NCBI GenBank assembly: GCA_005773095.1
Contig: SXHT01000107.1
Coordinates: 1-61,615, forward strand
Length of the DNA stretch: 61,615 nt
Origin: Planctomycetaceae bacterium
Lineage (GTDB): Bacteria > Planctomycetota > Planctomycetia > Pirellulales > PALSA-1355
Reading direction: 5' to 3'
The notes beneath the pieces are model-generated. The model ran no database searches. It had not been told where the DNA came from and saw only the letters and a program-made list of their open reading frames with translations. Below, in pieces: positions 15,491 to 57,336 of the stretch. Both the position numbers and the translations under genes were made by a program. Within the stretch, counting starts at the first letter, position 1; each line of letters opens with the position of its first letter.

Positions 15491-15564
15491 GGGCGATTAG
15501 CTCAGTTGGTTAGAGCACTAGCTCGACAAGCTAGGGGTCACAAGTTCGAGTCTTGTATCGCCCA
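15491..15564 (+). tRNA. tRNA-Val (anticodon GAC) with an unusual C at position 33
   Basis: A 74-nt cloverleaf: GGGCGAT-TA-GCTC-AGTTGGTTA-GAGC-A-CTAGC-TCGACAA-GCTAG-GGGTC-ACAAG-TTCGAGT-CTTGT-ATCGCCC-A. Confidence 0.85.
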
Positions 15565-15565
15565 C
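15544..15565 (+). repeat. attL-like core (T-loop to 3' end of tRNA-Val), direct repeat of 57243-57264
   Basis: GTTCGAGTCTTGTATCGCC is identical over 19 nt, and 21 of 22 nt overall. Confidence 0.75.
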
Positions 15566-15684
15566 TTAGTCACAAATCTTTGCCGAAGCCCAACTTGGGT
15601 TTCCTTCCTTCCAGGGAAGTGCGGCGAAAAACCCGCAGTGATTTGTCCGTAGGCAAGAGTTCGAAGCTTATGGAGTCGTCAACA

Positions 15685-15843
15685 ATGCCCAACACACCCC
15701 GTGATGCATATCACGACCTCATTATTGTTTCAAACCCGGTTGGCTATTGGCCGCTTCGGGAGAACACCCTGGACGAAAGCGGCCACGGTCGTGATGGAGT
15801 CTGTGTCGGTTCGCCGGAATTTGTTCAGAACGAGACGGTGTGA
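15685..15843 (+). pseudogene. short ORF resembling the N-terminal start of a LamG-type domain (probable gene remnant)
   Basis: MPNTPRDAYHDLIIVSNPVGYWPLRENTLDESGHGRDGVCVG... has the YWPL.E...DESG.G.DG pattern that begins LamG modules, but it stops after 52 aa. Confidence 0.3.
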
Positions 15844-15865
15844 TAGGTCACAAGCAGAGCAACCA

Positions 15866-16195
15866 ATGGCCTACAGCGAATCCCTCGCCGAACGGATACG
15901 TCAGGCTTTGCGACAGCGACCGGACATCCAGGAAAAGAAGATGTTCGGTGGTGTCGGTTTCTTGATGAACGGCAATATGCTGGTCGGGGTTTGGCAGCAA
16001 TCACTAATCGTTCGCCTCGGTGCCGAGCAAGCCAAGGACGCCTTAAAGCAGCCGTTCGTCGGAGAATTCGACATCACGGGCAAGCCAATGAAAGGCTGGG
16101 TGATGGTCGATCCGGACGGAATTGATTTCGATTCAGACTTGCGGGCATGGATCGAACAAGCGGAGACGTTTGTTGAAACGCTGCCGAAGAAGTAA
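15866..16195 (+). CDS. TfoX/Sxy N-terminal domain family protein
   Basis: 109 aa, MAYSESLAERIRQAL...EKKMFGGVGFLMNGNMLVGV.... Confidence 0.75.
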   Translation: MAYSESLAERIRQALRQRPDIQEKKMFGGVGFLMNGNMLVGVWQQSLIVRLGAEQAKDALKQPFVGEFDITGKPMKGWVMVDPDGIDFDSDLRAWIEQAETFVETLPKK

Positions 16196-16240
16196 AGGAG
16201 AAGCGAGACACGAAAGCAGTCACTTGTTCACCCCATGCGA

Positions 16241-16894
16241 TCACTTCTCGGTCACGTTCGCTGCTTTGACAAGGCTGTTGGGGTACTTGGTTACGGTGTC
16301 CCAGGCCAGTTCTTGCAATGAGCGGTTGAATTTGTCATCCCACGCTTCCCGTTTGGCGTTTTTCAACTTTGAGGGCATCGGTAAATCCACCGGGCTTTGA
16401 CCATAAAGAACTGCAAAGTGCATGTAGGCATTGAGGGCTTCCATTGGAGCCGAAGGATGAACGGCATCGACAAACAGTTCGCCTTGTTTCTTCAAGCCGG
16501 GCTATTCCATGTTGGCGATCTTTGTCCGCAGCGTCGTCATCGCTTGTGCGGTGGGAACCAAGGCGACGATTTTCTTGCCTCGACCGTACTTCTTGTTGAT
16601 GTCCTCGGCTTGAGCTTCCCCTGCCTTGATGTTTCGCTCGAAGAGGGTCTTGAGTTGTTCCGGTGTTTTCTCTTTATCCACGTTGTCGAACGCTCCCTTG
16701 GGGAAATCCTGGTTATCGATGTCTCCACCACCCCAAGAAAGCTGAACAATGAACCGCATGTCGGGATTGTGTTCCAGTCCCAGCTTGACGTAATTCTCAA
16801 TACCCTCATCGGGGAACGAAATTGGCGACATGATAAAGACATCGACCTCGCCCGACTTGAGGGCCTTCTTTGCCTCATTCTTGTCGTCGGGCAC
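16241..16894 (-). pseudogene. N-terminally truncated SGNH/DUF4886-like gene with an in-frame TAG (16502-16504)
   Basis: ORFs 16502-16894 and 16241-16495 are in the same frame and separated only by TAG-CCC-GGC. No signal peptide or N-terminal part is present. The 5' end abuts the SUI1 domain end at 16894. Confidence 0.55.
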
Positions 16895-55083: not shown

Positions 55084-55131
55084 CGGCGAAGCACCAATCT
55101 TGGGACGAACGCCTCAGATTTGATATCGGTG

Positions 55132-55153
55132 TATCAGTCTTAGATATCAGTCT
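55132..55153. promoter_or_regulatory. direct repeat TATCAGTCT-n4-TATCAGTCT about 50-70 nt upstream of the TIGR03032-like/giant operon start
   Basis: Copies at 55132-55140 and 55145-55153 in an AT-rich leader. Confidence 0.25.
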
Positions 55154-55647
55154 ATCTGTCGCGGACAAACGAATGGTTCAAAATGCAAACACGCCACCTG
55201 AACTCGTCCGAAGCACCGCCTAAGTGTAGTCGCCGTCCGATCCATAAATCAACTATCTTCCAGCACTTACGCGGTGCTGCTGGAATAGCCACAATGCGCT
55301 GAACCTCGGTCTCCGTGGAAAAAATCGCCGTTTTGCTGGAAAACGTTGAATGCAATGGAGATGCGTGGTAAGATCACTTTGCTGAAAATGTAGACGCAAC
55401 TGCTCGGTTCCACGATCCTGGTGTCTCTTTCCCAGGCTGTCGGCTAATGAGGTCCATGTGAACCCGCTGCACGAATCGCGGTTTTTCGCCGCGATTTCTC
55501 CAGCAGCGACGCACGATACTTTACGTTAGGCATTGGTCGTGTTCGTTTACTTTCGCTCCACTGTCCACGTCGCACTGTGATGTGGGCGACGTTGCCCTTG
55601 ATGGTTCCACAAGCAAGCTTCAATTGAGATTCCACAGGAGTGATCTT

Positions 55648-56313
55648 ATGCTCGCCAAATACTCTGGGCTGCGAATACGCGGCTTCGGTTCTGTCTTCTT
55701 TCTCGCGTTTGCTGGCTGGTGGGTCGTTTGCGGCACATCTGCCCAAGGCGTATCGCTAACCACACTCGACTTTAGCGAGATTCCGTTTCAGTCCGTCGAC
55801 GACCTCGCATACAACGGCGTTACGTTCGATTTCAAAGTCGGTGGCGCGGACTCCGCGGAGGCCTTTTACAATTCTTTCGGCCCGGGCACGCTGACCTATG
55901 TCGACGACCCCAGCCTGACGGGAGACTCAGCCGGTGTGCTCACGCTGGATTTCGCCGCTCCAACCTCCCTTCTCGAATTCGGGTTGGCACTCAACACTGC
56001 TGACGCGTTGAGCCCCGGATTCCGCGTCGAATTGTTCGCACCGGATTTGATGTCGCTCGGCGAGACTCCGGTGGACGTTTTCCCGACCGCTGGCGCACTT
56101 GGTTTTTCCGAAAACCGCTTCGAGTATTCGGGCGTCCCGATTTCCAAAGCAATTATCCGATTCAACCACCAACCGGGAAGTTTCGCCCTCGACAATCTGA
56201 CTTTCCTACCCGTTCCCGAGCCATCCTCCCTTGTAGCGACCGCTGCTGCACTCCTTGGTATTGTCTTCCGACGGCAGCGCGCCAGCTGGTACCGAAGGCG
56301 CGACAATTCCTGA
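55648..56313 (+). CDS. small secreted PEP-CTERM sorting-domain protein
   Basis: AGGAG RBS, signal-like N-terminus, and C-terminal LPVPEPSSLVATAAALLGIVFRRQR. Confidence 0.85.
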   Translation: MLAKYSGLRIRGFGSVFFLAFAGWWVVCGTSAQGVSLTTLDFSEIPFQSVDDLAYNGVTFDFKVGGADSAEAFYNSFGPGTLTYVDDPSLTGDSAGVLTLDFAAPTSLLEFGLALNTADALSPGFRVELFAPDLMSLGETPVDVFPTAGALGFSENRFEYSGVPISKAIIRFNHQPGSFALDNLTFLPVPEPSSLVATAAALLGIVFRRQRASWYRRRDNS

Positions 56314-56411
56314 CAAGTCATCGCCGTGCACGTCGTAGCCAACCGCACTTACCAATCTCCTTCATCCGCAAAGATATTTGAGTACTGTCTGACTTTATCG
56401 CATCTTGTGCC

Positions 56412-56621
56412 GTGGCGTCGGATGTATCCAAACTCGAATTCATCGACCTTGAAACAGGTGGCCTCGATCCGCGCCGGTACCCCATCATTCAGCTTGCCGC
56501 GATTGCGGTCGACGGTGCCACGCTCGCGACCCTGGAGACCATTGAAATCAAAGTGCGCTTCGACGAACACAAGGCCAACAAATATTCCCTTCGCAAGAAT
56601 TCGTACTCGCGGAAGCCGTGA
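56412..56621 (+). pseudogene. N-terminal fragment of a DnaQ-like 3'-5' exonuclease, cut off at about 56600
   Basis: KLEFIDLETGGLDPRRYPIIQLAAIAV is an ExoI D.E motif. The ORF ends after ~69 aa, where IS630-like sequence begins on the opposite strand. Confidence 0.5.
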
Positions 56622-57070
56622 TGGTAACGTCCATACACGGCCCGGCCCTTGATGAACTTCCAGAGCCGTACGATCAGATTCAGGTTCGGTGAGTACGACG
56701 GCAGAAACAGTAGCGTGATCTTAAGCTGCACCGCCAATGCCTGCACCACGGCATTGCGTTGATAGCGCGCGTTGTCCAGCACCAGTGTGGTCGGCCCTGT
56801 CAGGCCGAGCTCGGCGATCTTCCGCAGCAGTTCGCACATTGTTTCCGTGTTGACGACCGTCGTGTTGGTCACGCTGACCAGTTCACGGGTCACGGCGTTC
56901 CAGGCTCCCAGCACTTTGAACCGCTGACGACCGGACGCGGCACGCACATACAGCCGCGCGAACGACCACAGGCAGCACAAGTACGTGCCGAACACGAAAT
57001 GAGCCGCATCCACGAAGAATAAGTGCCCCCGGCCATCGGCAGTCGATGCCGGATCGGTAGTACCTTTCAT
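56489..57070 (-). mobile_element. IS630-family DDE transposase fragment (catalytic part only; the HTH N-terminus is missing)
   Basis: LFFVDAAHF..., LVLDNARYQRN, LLFLPSYSPNLNLIVRLWKFIK. Homology appears to end near 56597. Confidence 0.7.
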
Positions 57071-57336
57071 TTGGCCGCACGGATCATCGCCAGGATGTCC
57101 GCCCGGGCGGTTTCGGGCAACGTCGGCCAGGCGTCGATGGCCTCGGCCAAACCAGGGTCGAGCGGGGCCAAAGTAGGGTCAGGTGCAGCGCCCGGTGCTG
57201 CGCTTTCAACCGTCTCGCCAAAAGTGCAACACTGTTGCGGGTGTTCGAGTCTTGTATCGCCAACTCCCCGGTTTTTCAGGGTTTCGCGGAAGACTGGGGT
57301 CAGTTCTTGAATCGAGGTCATCGGAGCTTCTCTCAA
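57067..57336 (-). CDS. doubtful 89-aa ORF spanning the attR-like tRNA fragment; only the C-terminal part (…AIDAWPTLPETARADILAMIRAAK) looks protein-like
   Basis: The N-terminal half translates across the tRNA-Val 3' repeat (GVGDTRLEH). An ATGA overlap joins it to the IS630 fragment ORF. Confidence 0.25.
   Translation of the reverse strand: MREAPMTSIQELTPVFRETLKNRGVGDTRLEHPQQCCTFGETVESAAPGAAPDPTLAPLDPGLAEAIDAWPTLPETARADILAMIRAAK
57243..57264 (+). repeat. attR-like copy of the tRNA-Val 3' end
   Basis: GTTCGAGTCTTGTATCGCC(a)AC compared with the tRNA GTTCGAGTCTTGTATCGCC(c)AC at 15544-15565. Confidence 0.75.

Follow-up and report, generated by a model that had tools for sequence, protein, structure and literature searches.

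The window, by which we mean the whole 61,615-nt stretch of planctomycete DNA that was analyzed, is dominated by a single RHS-type open reading frame (ORF) of 10,950 amino acids (aa) (32.9 kb; positions 21608-54460 in the ORF list, minus strand). To its left lie a gene encoding a Usp-T2SSE ATPase (13317-15014, minus strand; Pfam), whose protein is identical in two assemblies, and an intact tRNA-Val(GAC) gene (15491-15565, plus strand), which was called by ARAGORN and scored 69.9 bits against the Rfam tRNA model at 15491-15564. To its right, macB (57402-59816, minus strand) belongs to a conserved OEP-HlyD-MacB operon. The 3′ end of the tRNA-Val gene recurs beside macB, and the 41.7 kb bracketed by the two copies are, by composition and codon usage, a mosaic of a 6.5-kb foreign patch, the giant gene, and 2.6 kb of gene fragments.

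The foreign patch (15567-22100; GC 0.53, tetranucleotide r to the core 0.56-0.72) adjoins the tRNA gene and, according to the fine GC profile, also covers the last ~500 bp of the giant ORF. A 33-bp duplication is present where this low-GC sequence overruns the ORF. Pfam domains identify the contents of the patch as TfoX_N, an LMWPc-SUI1 fusion, ARPP-1, a small HTH-like ORF, DUF4291, a SEC-C fragment, and pseudogene pieces; these are genes of the conflict-system type, and all but one of their ORFs (GC3 0.75) have a GC3 of 0.51-0.70, with an RSCU r of 0.42-0.67. At the opposite end, the gene-fragment patch (54457-57066; Pfam) starts with a truncated DUF4915 gene that is host-like in composition (54457-55083, minus strand; profile positions 2-145 of 316), followed by a gene for a PEP-CTERM protein (55582-56313, plus strand; Pfam), an RNase_T fragment (56412-56621, plus strand; 2-53 of 164), and an IS630-family transposase fragment lacking the N-terminal third (56489-57070, minus strand; DDE_3 profile 26-139 of 146, E 1.2e-17). 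A preliminary description of this DNA had reported truncated genes, an IS630 fragment, and low-GC patches at both ends. The transposase fragment and the truncations were confirmed, the latter including DUF4915, RNase_T, and a stop-interrupted fragment at 16241-16894. Of the two low-GC patches, only the left is strongly atypical; the right is near normal (GC 0.58, tetranucleotide r ~0.9).

In the carboxyl-terminal half of the giant protein, Pfam detected Big_9, He_PIG, cadherin-like, and dockerin domains, DUF6531, and an RHS-repeat shell, while LamG-type domains are predicted in the N-terminal part from the homologs that match there. The shell lies mid-protein, preceded by DUF6531 and followed by ~1,900 residues; no toxin domain or immunity gene was identified at the giant gene. 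Codon usage of the gene equals that of the flanking core genes (GC3 0.74, RSCU r 0.96), which excludes its recent acquisition from a distant donor. Its N-terminal 1000 aa had no ortholog in public genomes or data.

The tRNA-Val repeat pair

The bracketing repeat had been described as a direct repeat of the tRNA-Val 3′ end (19 nt exact, 21/22 extended) with a negligible probability of chance recurrence. Both statements were upheld: with up to 3 mismatches allowed, GTTCGAGTCTTGTATCGCC had exactly two matches in the window, at 15544-15562 and 57243-57261, both on the plus strand, where shuffled sequences gave an expectation of 0.01 chance matches. Extension by one further base yields a 22/23 match between 15544-15566 and 57243-57265. 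The left core copy, attL, begins in the T-loop at G53 and ends 2 nt past the discriminator base; the single mismatch, C in the gene versus A in the right copy (attR), falls on tRNA position 72. Neither ARAGORN nor Rfam found tRNA-like sequence upstream of the right copy; because the two loci are unrelated upstream of the 19-mer, this copy is a displaced 3′ fragment rather than a second tRNA. The locus thus has the geometry of Islander-type islands, with a cognate 3′ fragment downstream of, and in the same orientation as, the intact tRNA-Val(GAC) that served as the integration target. The repeat is a genuine attL/attR pair, a scar left by the insertion of a mobile element into the tRNA gene. 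No internal att copy was found that would mark the border of successive insertions. A separate, orphan-looking tRNA 3′ fragment is present at 11139-11188.

Three assemblies share this structure: the NCBI metagenome-assembled contig that contains the window, Logan SRR8894379 (100% identity), and ENA ERZ27257034 (99.8-99.98%). Between the window and the ENA contig, 30 differences were counted, all of them outside the bracket, with 0 in the 25.3 kb compared inside; when the 30 sites are treated as 8 clusters, the probability of a difference-free bracket is ~6e-4. The difference-free block begins at 11039, not at tRNA-Val, and some of the differences sit in conserved or paralogous sequence (tRNA-Arg, macB, and hlyD) and may represent consensus noise. 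No close relative was found; the nearest relatives have 66-69% protein identity in the flank proteins and no synteny, and none of them carries a tRNA-Val beside either flank gene. Similarity to the nearest of these (L082) ends at the macB stop codon at 57402. The sequence between attR and this stop codon (57266-57401) is presumably the native flank (B′); beyond the core, it is unrelated to L084, a metagenomic contig that matches the inner side of attR.

A small ORF at attR and its integrative-element relatives

The right core copy falls in a small 89-aa ORF (57067-57336, minus strand; 84 aa when called from 57321), whose 5′ part reads antisense to the tRNA fragment. By its homologs (P0122-P0124), this is the terminal gene of an integrative element. 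Its C-terminus carries the conserved motif PGLAEAIDAWPTLPETARADILAMIRA and ends in ..AWPTLPE..ILAMIRA, conforming to the family form ..AWPTLPE..(I/V)xAM(V/I).. at the C-terminal end. Homologs are 49-71% identical, relatives are encoded at 43 metagenomic loci, and the AWPTLPE motif occurs in at least 4651 protein clusters, counted by their representatives. As a coding signature, codon-position entropy is 1.05 at the third position against 0.38 and 0.23 at the first and second, and the motif is therefore protein-coding. No match to the small ORF was found in Pfam, PHROG, or NCBIfam, and a search of its profile against IMG/VR returned nothing.

In the metagenomic loci, translation upstream of the motif in the same frame gives antisense-tRNA peptides. 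At 18 of 39 non-redundant loci, a perfect antisense T-arm occurs no more than 300 nt away, compared with 26 of 1142 background windows. The targets beside the homologs comprise many different tRNAs and one tmRNA, and on more than 40 metagenomic contigs the homologs keep the orientation of the window ORF relative to the displaced tRNA 3′ fragments. Judged by these sequence comparisons, the right copy is a true attR.

The elements with this ORF, here called AWPTLPE-ORF integrative elements, are a family delineated in the present analysis. In complete copies, the small ORF is the far-end, first gene of a same-strand set, followed by a replication gene (Prim-Pol, AAA_25, or HTH_36) and a tyrosine integrase, which abuts the intact tRNA. 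Three loci of this type (L129, L127, and L119) measure 6-8 kb and lie in tRNA genes, and the three family integrases share 37-41% mutual identity. L129 reads tRNA fragment, small ORF, Prim-Pol, integrase, and intact tRNA-Ser, with an exact repeat of at least 55 nt spanning 5.8 kb; L127 (7.8 kb) has a repeat of ~65 nt with one mismatch and contains HTH_36, integrase, and tRNA-Ser. A tRNA-Tyr repeat was found at L122, and the order integrase, fragment, small ORF at L120. The attL/attR reading of the preliminary description is thereby sustained: the right copy ends a recognizable remnant of an integrative element, and complete members share the exact geometry.

Of the element itself, only ~200-235 bp remain in the window. 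The surviving element-side (P) arm of attR (57067-57242) has DNA-level homology to L084 and is, by tblastx, the sole part of the two patches that resembles element loci. The alignment to L084 spans the P arm and the T-loop. The acceptor part does not match, the two tRNA targets being different, and no homology is seen in the outer flank. The 5′-truncated IS630 fragment abuts this remnant and marks the deletion that took away the rest of the element. In agreement with the earlier failure to find an integrase, Pfam scans, run in six frames on all non-giant DNA in the bracket and also on the annotated ORFs and on large ORFs antisense to the giant gene, detected no integrase or recombinase domain, and an HMM of the family integrases against the six-frame window gave nothing better than E 0.07. 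Pfam scans and tblastx against the element loci revealed no excisionase or replication gene (Prim-Pol, AAA_25, or HTH_36) anywhere in the window. No integrase abuts tRNA-Val, the first gene after it being TfoX_N. Taken together with the IS630 truncation, the pseudogenes, and the mosaic composition, the missing integrase bears out the description of the locus as a fossil or composite island: it is a composite fossil island of a known kind.

Two other vehicles were considered and are not supported. A composite IS630 transposon carrying the giant gene would have two flanking copies, but one 5′-truncated fragment is all that is present. For a prophage, no phage structural or lysis Pfam domains were found, and the IMG/VR search was negative; the sole viral match to the 19-mer lies in an unrelated tRNA array.

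Proposed history and alternative explanations

We propose that an element with a tyrosine integrase recombined into tRNA-Val(GAC), the exchange involving the stretch between the T-loop and the 3′ end. It would have brought a new 3′ end, leaving the tRNA intact, and would have pushed the native 3′ end to its present position at 57243-57265, where one substitution has since arisen. Its terminal small ORF would have persisted just inside the displaced fragment, while the remainder, integrase included, was presumably deleted up to the truncated IS630 gene. The 41.7-kb mosaic would most likely derive from further rounds of insertion at this tRNA and subsequent deletions, with newer DNA closest to the tRNA, and the present structure would no longer be able to excise. 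We regard this account as a whole, an att pair at tRNA-Val(GAC) from which most of the element was deleted and whose interior became a mosaic by later insertions and deletions, as reasonably probable. The order of events, and the entry of the giant gene as island DNA rather than by a later move, are suggested by this reconstruction. The preliminary description had considered the 33-kb gene accessory cargo. The att geometry, the N-terminal region without orthologs, and the difference-free bracket speak for this, while the core-like codons and the size of the complete family members (5.8 and 7.8 kb) speak against it; the gene may plausibly have arrived as mobile cargo.

Two alternatives accept that an element integrated here, and neither seems likely to us. 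The element could have entered a second tRNA-Val(GAC), to the left of the small ORF near macB, after which the deletion that truncated IS630 removed its interior, its integrase, and that tRNA. The right copy would then be an orphan attR matching the tRNA at 15491 as a paralog, and the giant gene would be ordinary chromosome, never bracketed by one element. This would fit the short remnant ending at the truncation, the codon usage of the giant gene, and the small size of the two complete elements, and the fragment at 11139-11188 shows that unpaired tRNA 3′ fragments occur here. However, an identical, duplicated tRNA-Val 41 kb away is required, of which there is no trace, and it remains unexplained why the assembly differences all avoid the bracket and why a foreign patch begins precisely where the surviving tRNA-Val ends. 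It is similarly improbable that a 5-10 kb element integrated when tRNA-Val still adjoined macB and that an intragenomic rearrangement, IS-mediated or by recombination, later placed a resident giant gene and its neighbors inside a real att pair, without horizontal acquisition of the gene. Neither a second IS copy nor a repeat borders the 35-kb segment in question, and its entry into a target of 200 bp to 10 kb with neither att site inverted implies several events. The N-terminal region lacking orthologs in any public genome also argues against a resident gene, even though the composition of both the giant gene and the DUF4915 fragment is like that of the host, the junction carries an IS630 fragment, and the low-GC overrun with its 33-bp duplication suggests a recombination joint.

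That the repeat itself is spurious can effectively be dismissed. The 19-mer also occurs in an unrelated phage tRNA-Leu inside a tRNA array and is thus generically tRNA-like, but a chance match is opposed by the shuffling result, which holds even with 3 mismatches. Membership of the 57243 copy in a dispersed repeat family unrelated to the tRNA, raised in the preliminary description as a possible refutation, is contradicted by the lack of further copies in the window and in the adjoining 7 kb of the source contig, and the copy sits exactly where homologous element ends bear the fragments of other tRNAs. There is likewise next to no room for a chimeric contig joined at the repeat. The source is a metagenome assembly, and Logan contigs break in tRNA-Val (15517) and in the tRNA-like fragment (11174). 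Nevertheless, a repeat of 19-22 bp is too short to join de Bruijn graphs built with k = 31 or 141; attL is spanned by the NCBI and ENA contigs, and attR by NCBI, ENA, and Logan (L137) contigs, with the same neighbors.

While a degraded tRNA-associated island is ordinary in itself, our preferred reading, an att pair with a mosaic interior, would make tRNA-Val an integration hotspot in an uncultured planctomycete lineage. With the 33-kb gene inside mapped att boundaries, it would also provide rare direct evidence on the accessory status of planctomycetal giant genes. More speculatively, and with considerable doubt, we suggest that the AWPTLPE small-ORF elements form a very large, undescribed family targeting tRNA and tmRNA genes, that the small protein at the attR/attP junction is a new integration/excision control factor, and that in this lineage the RHS-type giant gene was cargo of an element of this kind or of islands stacked on it. 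If so, giant surface-protein genes can move via site-specific integration at tRNA genes. The small-ORF family, widespread and unannotated, marks the attR end of tRNA-integrating elements and could be a cheap marker of island ends, including decayed ones missed by integrase-based finders.

Comparison with known systems

Rhs/YD-repeat polymorphic toxin loci often vary between strains. The giant gene of the window resembles them in the order of DUF6531 and a long RHS-repeat shell, but differs in that the shell lies inside a multidomain protein of 10,950 aa, with ~1,900 residues after it.

The tDNA islands of Islander (Hudson, Lau and Williams 2015, PMC4383910) share with the window an intact tRNA and a cognate 3′ fragment downstream in the same orientation, and the crossover in the window belongs to their T-stem/T-loop class, which accounts for about half of the islands. 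Islander demands a tyrosine integrase gene in the interval, and its islands are regarded as putatively active. The locus described here would be filtered out, since its integrase is absent and its interior degraded.

Among complete relatives, L129, L127, and L119 resemble actinomycete AICEs such as pSAM2 (te Poele et al. 2008, PMC2440964): both are small and tRNA-integrating, and combine an integrase with Prim-Pol-type replication genes. No conjugation or transfer genes were seen in the AWPTLPE-ORF relatives, and their taxonomic setting is a different one, the source being related to Planctomycetota. They also differ in the small motif ORF at the attR end, the only gene kept by the window copy.

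Planctomycetes commonly carry genes larger than 20 kb (Kohn et al. 2016, PMC5177795). That study describes giant genes and strain-specific regions, and ties no giant gene to mapped att sites. The giant gene of the window, in comparison, lies between an attL/attR pair, yet has host-like codon usage.

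A displaced copy of the tRNA-Val 3′ end

Two tRNA genes were predicted in the window by ARAGORN and confirmed by Rfam, both on the forward strand: tRNA-Arg(CCT) at 10995-11068 and tRNA-Val(GAC) at 15491-15565. The preliminary description had reported an exact 19-nt direct repeat of the tRNA-Val 3′ end on the same strand and had judged its chance recurrence negligible, both of which were borne out. With up to 3 mismatches allowed, the 19-mer GTTCGAGTCTTGTATCGCC matches the window only at 15544-15562 and 57243-57261, both on the forward strand, against 0.01 matches expected from dinucleotide-preserving shuffles. 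Identity begins at the final base of the 5′ T-stem strand and extends across the T-loop and the 3′ T-stem strand into the acceptor strand. The sole break is at tRNA position 72, where the gene has C and the copy A; three more matching bases follow, giving an extended repeat of 22/23 (15544-15566 and 57243-57265). Left of the 19-mer the sequences at the two loci are unrelated, and around 57.2 kb ARAGORN predicted no tRNA. The right copy is hence a bare 3′ fragment, located downstream of its cognate tRNA-Val in the same orientation. The C72-to-A change in this fragment would disrupt the G1-C72 pair, which fits neutral decay after displacement. We conclude that the repeat is a real pair of att scars.

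Scans for promoters and terminators at both att sites returned nothing informative. No degenerate att copies that could mark tandem islands were detected with up to 8/26 mismatches, other than an unrelated tRNA-like fragment at 11164. The latter belongs to an orphan tRNA 3′ half at 11139-11188 (forward strand), about 70 bp past the intact tRNA-Arg(CCT) and ahead of a strong terminator hairpin at 11233-11266. It comprises an anticodon stem-loop with CAT, a T-arm (ATAGG-TTCGAGT-CCTGT), and an acceptor strand (CCCCGCC-A); neither ARAGORN nor Rfam detected a whole tRNA there. A contig from the Logan assemblies ends within it, at 11174, as if the sequence recurs elsewhere. The fragment may be another att scar, or a tRNA-Met of which half was deleted.

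A phage attP was considered as the origin of the repeat and rejected, as among viral contigs the 19-mer matched nothing but a tRNA-Leu, which belongs to a phage tRNA array (24 tRNAs in 5 kb; IMG/VR contig L083). The acceptor and T-arm of this tRNA-Leu(CAG), at 3243-3320 of that contig, are identical to those of the tRNA-Val in the window, showing that the 19-mer also occurs outside tRNA-Val.

A small ORF family at tRNA fragments

The right copy of the repeat sits within a small ORF (57067-57336, reverse strand), for which a protein search returned three non-self homologues with 49-71% identity. Conservation resides in the C-terminus, which reads PGLAE.I.AWPTLPE..+A.ILAM(I/V)R, while the N-termini of the homologues, MTPTGLE.. 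or MEAAGIE.., are tRNA T-loops translated antisense. A pattern scan of JGI metagenome contigs, based on the small-ORF alignment, yielded 43 loci, and at most of these the frame upstream of the motif encodes antisense-tRNA peptides (GGIRT, RDSNPR, RVELPTHGFSV, GTRTRNHRIDSP, and LDSNQGPRDYES). Because the E-value mode of Rfam has low sensitivity for partial tRNAs, recovering only L100, L107, and a tmRNA fragment in L101 among these loci, a T-arm scan with a background control was used in its place. A perfect antisense T-arm was found at most 300 nt upstream of the motif in 18 of the 39 non-redundant loci, compared with 26 of 1142 control windows. ARAGORN made a single call upstream of the motif, in L107, which is doubtful by sequence. 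Judging from the anticodon loops, the fragments derive from tRNAs for Phe, Met, Ser, Asp, Arg, and Cys, with one Tyr case; at 2334-2385 of L101, a fragment of a tmRNA 3′ end takes the place of the tRNA fragment.

Across 40 distinct DNA versions, the entropy of the core block of the motif was 0.38, 0.23, and 1.05 at codon positions 1, 2, and 3, respectively, indicating that the motif is protein-coding. A profile of the small ORF matched 4651 proteins at E ≤ 1e-3 among 1.84 billion cluster representatives. The best 150 of these are all 49-233 aa long, and almost all have the motif at the C-terminus or close to it. Pfam, PHROGs, and NCBIfam contain no model for the small ORF, and the profile had no match in IMG/VR. 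This AWPTLPE family, whose members are consistently neighbours of displaced 3′ fragments of tRNAs or a tmRNA and which could mark the ends of islands, is the most reusable by-product of this work.

Complete and partial relatives of the element were found among the loci. In L129, a tRNA-Ser 3′ fragment is followed by the small ORF, a Prim-Pol gene, a gene for a 598-aa tyrosine integrase, and an intact tRNA-Ser(TGA); the exact repeat covers at least 55 nt, up to the contig end, and the element is about 5.8 kb long. L127 has the same order, with an HTH_36 protein, the integrase, and tRNA-Ser, bounded by a repeat of about 65 nt with one mismatch; this element spans 7.8 kb and has host DNA on either side. 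A third locus, L119, contains the small ORF together with AAA_25 and an integrase. Among the three full integrases, pairwise identity is 37-41%, and in an all-versus-all BLASTP of the small-ORF neighbours, the integrase cluster (3 loci) was the only conserved neighbour. At other loci, the element-side cargo included RadC with a UvrD/PD-(D/E)XK helicase-nuclease, HEPN, ParB with a serine recombinase, and IS66, and some had ordinary genes on this side. In L122, the fragment duplicates the 3′ part of a tRNA-Tyr that lies at a distance of 5.3 kb, and no integrase was detectable; this locus is another decayed copy. Positions 1-700 of L120 show the 3′ end of an integrase gene, encoding the C-terminus, then a tRNA fragment and then the small ORF, as would be expected of a tandem array or of sequence spanning attP in an excised circle. 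The architecture of the complete relatives thus identifies the small ORF as the gene nearest attR, read inward, with the integrase at the opposite, tRNA-proximal end.

The closest relative of the window is L084. In a DNA alignment, it is highly similar to the reverse strand of the window from the stop codon of the small ORF through the T-loop, diverges in the acceptor part, since the target tRNAs differ, and is unrelated beyond. An attR is expected to show this very succession of P arm, core, and B′. The earlier reading of the two copies as attL and attR is thereby given a recognizable element end, and the right copy is very probably a true attR remnant. The surviving element DNA amounts to only about 200-235 bp, ending against a fragment of an IS630-type element. 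In tblastx comparisons, the only other resemblance to the element loci within 15.4-21.8 and 54.4-57.4 kb was a 22-codon SEC-C motif. A deletion with one end in the IS630 copy would be the simplest cause of this truncation.

Content and composition of the bracketed DNA

The left flank is made up of ordinary genes, which encode a helicase, an ABC transporter, a TPR protein, a PQQ-propeller protein, and a Usp-T2SSE ATPase (13317-15014). The right flank carries macB (57402-59816) and hlyD, which belong to an OEP-HlyD-MacB operon on the longer source contig. Between them, the bracketed DNA falls into a left patch (15567 to about 22100), a giant ORF of 10,950 aa (21608-54460, reverse strand), and a right patch (54457-57070). 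The left patch holds TfoX_N, an LMWPc-SUI1 fusion, ARPP-1, an HTH-like small ORF, DUF4291, a SEC-C fragment, and a gene piece interrupted by stops (16241-16894). The fusion ORF, joining a low-molecular-weight phosphatase domain to SUI1, adjoins the ARPP-1 gene (16537-18901), a pairing already expressed in the name of the Pfam family, and continues into out-of-frame remnants of another gene, the piece at 16241-16894. The right patch encodes a PEP-CTERM protein and fragments of DUF4915 (profile positions 2-145 of 316), RNase_T (2-53 of 164), and an IS630-type DDE_3 transposase lacking its N-terminal part, the 5′ third of the gene. The truncated genes and IS630 fragment noted previously are therefore present, and so is the reported lack of an integrase. 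Pfam scans detected no integrase or recombinase in the annotated ORFs, in six-frame translations of the non-giant DNA outside them, or in the ten largest antisense ORFs within the giant gene; likewise, an HMM of the related elements' integrases found none in a six-frame translation of the whole window.

Low-GC patches had been described at both ends of the bracket, of which only the left one is strongly atypical. The left patch has a GC content of 0.53 versus about 0.60 for the flanks, and its tetranucleotide correlation to the flanks is 0.56-0.72, versus 0.92-0.95 for flank windows (3-kb windows). Its genes have a GC3 of 0.51-0.70, one ORF (0.75) excepted, and RSCU correlations of 0.42-0.67, while core genes range over 0.68-0.77 and 0.72-0.93, respectively. 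The right patch deviates only mildly; the left patch alone is clearly foreign. The giant gene is compositionally indistinguishable from the core, with a pooled GC3 of 0.74 versus 0.73 and an RSCU correlation of 0.96 (0.87-0.95 per 1000 codons). The low-GC zone reaches about 500 bp (about 165 codons) into the 3′ end of the giant ORF, with a GC content of 0.44-0.50 over 21300-22100, and a 33-bp tandem repeat in two copies, encoding VQSRFARF twice, lies at its extreme end (21610-21675). Together, these features suggest that the foreign patch arrived after the giant gene and may have replaced its original 3′ end.

The C-terminal half of the giant protein contains Big_9, He_PIG, cadherin-like, dockerin, Big_2, and DUF6531 domains, and many RHS repeats (Pfam). 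The position of the RHS cage is unusual: the shell closes with a typical ..NPLRYVDLTGH.. core, after which about 1,900 more residues (21608-27500) follow instead of a short toxin tip, with an HELGH metalloprotease-like motif, repeated Calx-beta-like segments, and dockerin-like DxDG repeats. No orthologue of the N-terminal 1000 aa was found, the matches being at the level of LamG domains; this fits an accessory gene, as it does a poorly sampled lineage. Planctomycetes are already known to carry giant genes of more than 20 kb that coincide with strain-specific regions (Kohn et al. 2016, PMC5177795).

Origin of the proposed island and comparison with known systems

The window is an NCBI MAG contig of 61,615 bp, and Logan contigs (SRR8894379) are 100% identical to it over 11174-15517, 16676-30927, and 47067-57492, the last connecting macB, the small ORF, IS630, and the giant gene. 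An 82-kb ENA contig (ERZ27257034, k141_1885481) covers the whole region at 99.8-99.98% identity. Assembly chimerism is excluded by this agreement. The window and the ENA contig were compared over 41.8 kb (3317-30927 and 47402-61615), with the middle 16.5 kb of the giant gene outside the comparison. All 30 differences lie outside the bracket, 5 in 5177-11038 and 25 in 57694-61579, and none in the 25.3 kb compared inside it; treated as eight clusters, such a distribution has a chance of about 6e-4, with the caveat that a tRNA gene and genes that have paralogues account for some of the differences. The right-hand 25 are clustered in macB and hlyD, and two others are in the tRNA-Arg gene. The difference-free block (11039-57693) starts 4.4 kb left of tRNA-Val rather than at it and takes in the T2SSE gene and orf493; the site of tRNA-Arg and the orphan tRNA fragment may therefore be where the variable region begins. 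Either the flanks are common to co-occurring strains without the insert (or with an identical one), or the spread of the insert was recent; in either case, a history of the bracketed DNA distinct from that of its flanks is favoured.

Relatives of the flanking genes, sought in public data for an empty site, did not share this neighbourhood. Among 185k species genomes, the T2SSE protein of the left flank has its best orthologues in Schlesneria-like MAGs, at 66% identity, and none has a tRNA-Val or neighbours in common with the window. MacB homologues reach at most 69% identity and likewise have no shared neighbours and no tRNA-Val alongside. In the nearest, L082, similarity ends at the macB stop codon, with no tRNA in the next 1.7 kb. 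At 10704-10769 of this contig, 1.6 kb downstream of macB, an ORF starts with MNMPHLLCLETLEPRYAM, resembling the LE..R..L signal at the N-terminus of the giant protein (..LFEILEDRQLL..); 22 codons of this ORF precede the contig end.

On balance, the most likely reading of the bracketed DNA is a fossil island, composite and immobile, at a tRNA hotspot. The preliminary description had likewise proposed a fossil or composite island, which agrees with the missing integrase, the three-part content, the gene fragments, and a foreign composition confined to the left patch. The geometry and the difference map speak for its further proposal, that the giant gene is accessory cargo, and the host-like codon usage speaks against it; arrival as mobile cargo would be plausible. 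The same codon usage would suit the two main rival scenarios, in which the attR is an orphan left from a lost second copy of tRNA-Val, or a resident giant gene moved later, within the genome, into a small decaying element. We regard each of these as unlikely.

The composite fossil island can be compared with two known systems. Islander islands are recognized by a regenerated tDNA and a displaced fragment at the island ends, with an integrase required in the interval (PMC4383910). The window has the same geometry, with a crossover of the T-stem/T-loop class, but its interval has no integrase, which makes this locus a decayed member of the kind rather than an active island. The complete relatives differ from AICEs (PMC2440964) in that no transfer genes were seen and in carrying a distinctive, unannotated small ORF, while they resemble AICEs in working as small tRNA-integrating replicative elements.
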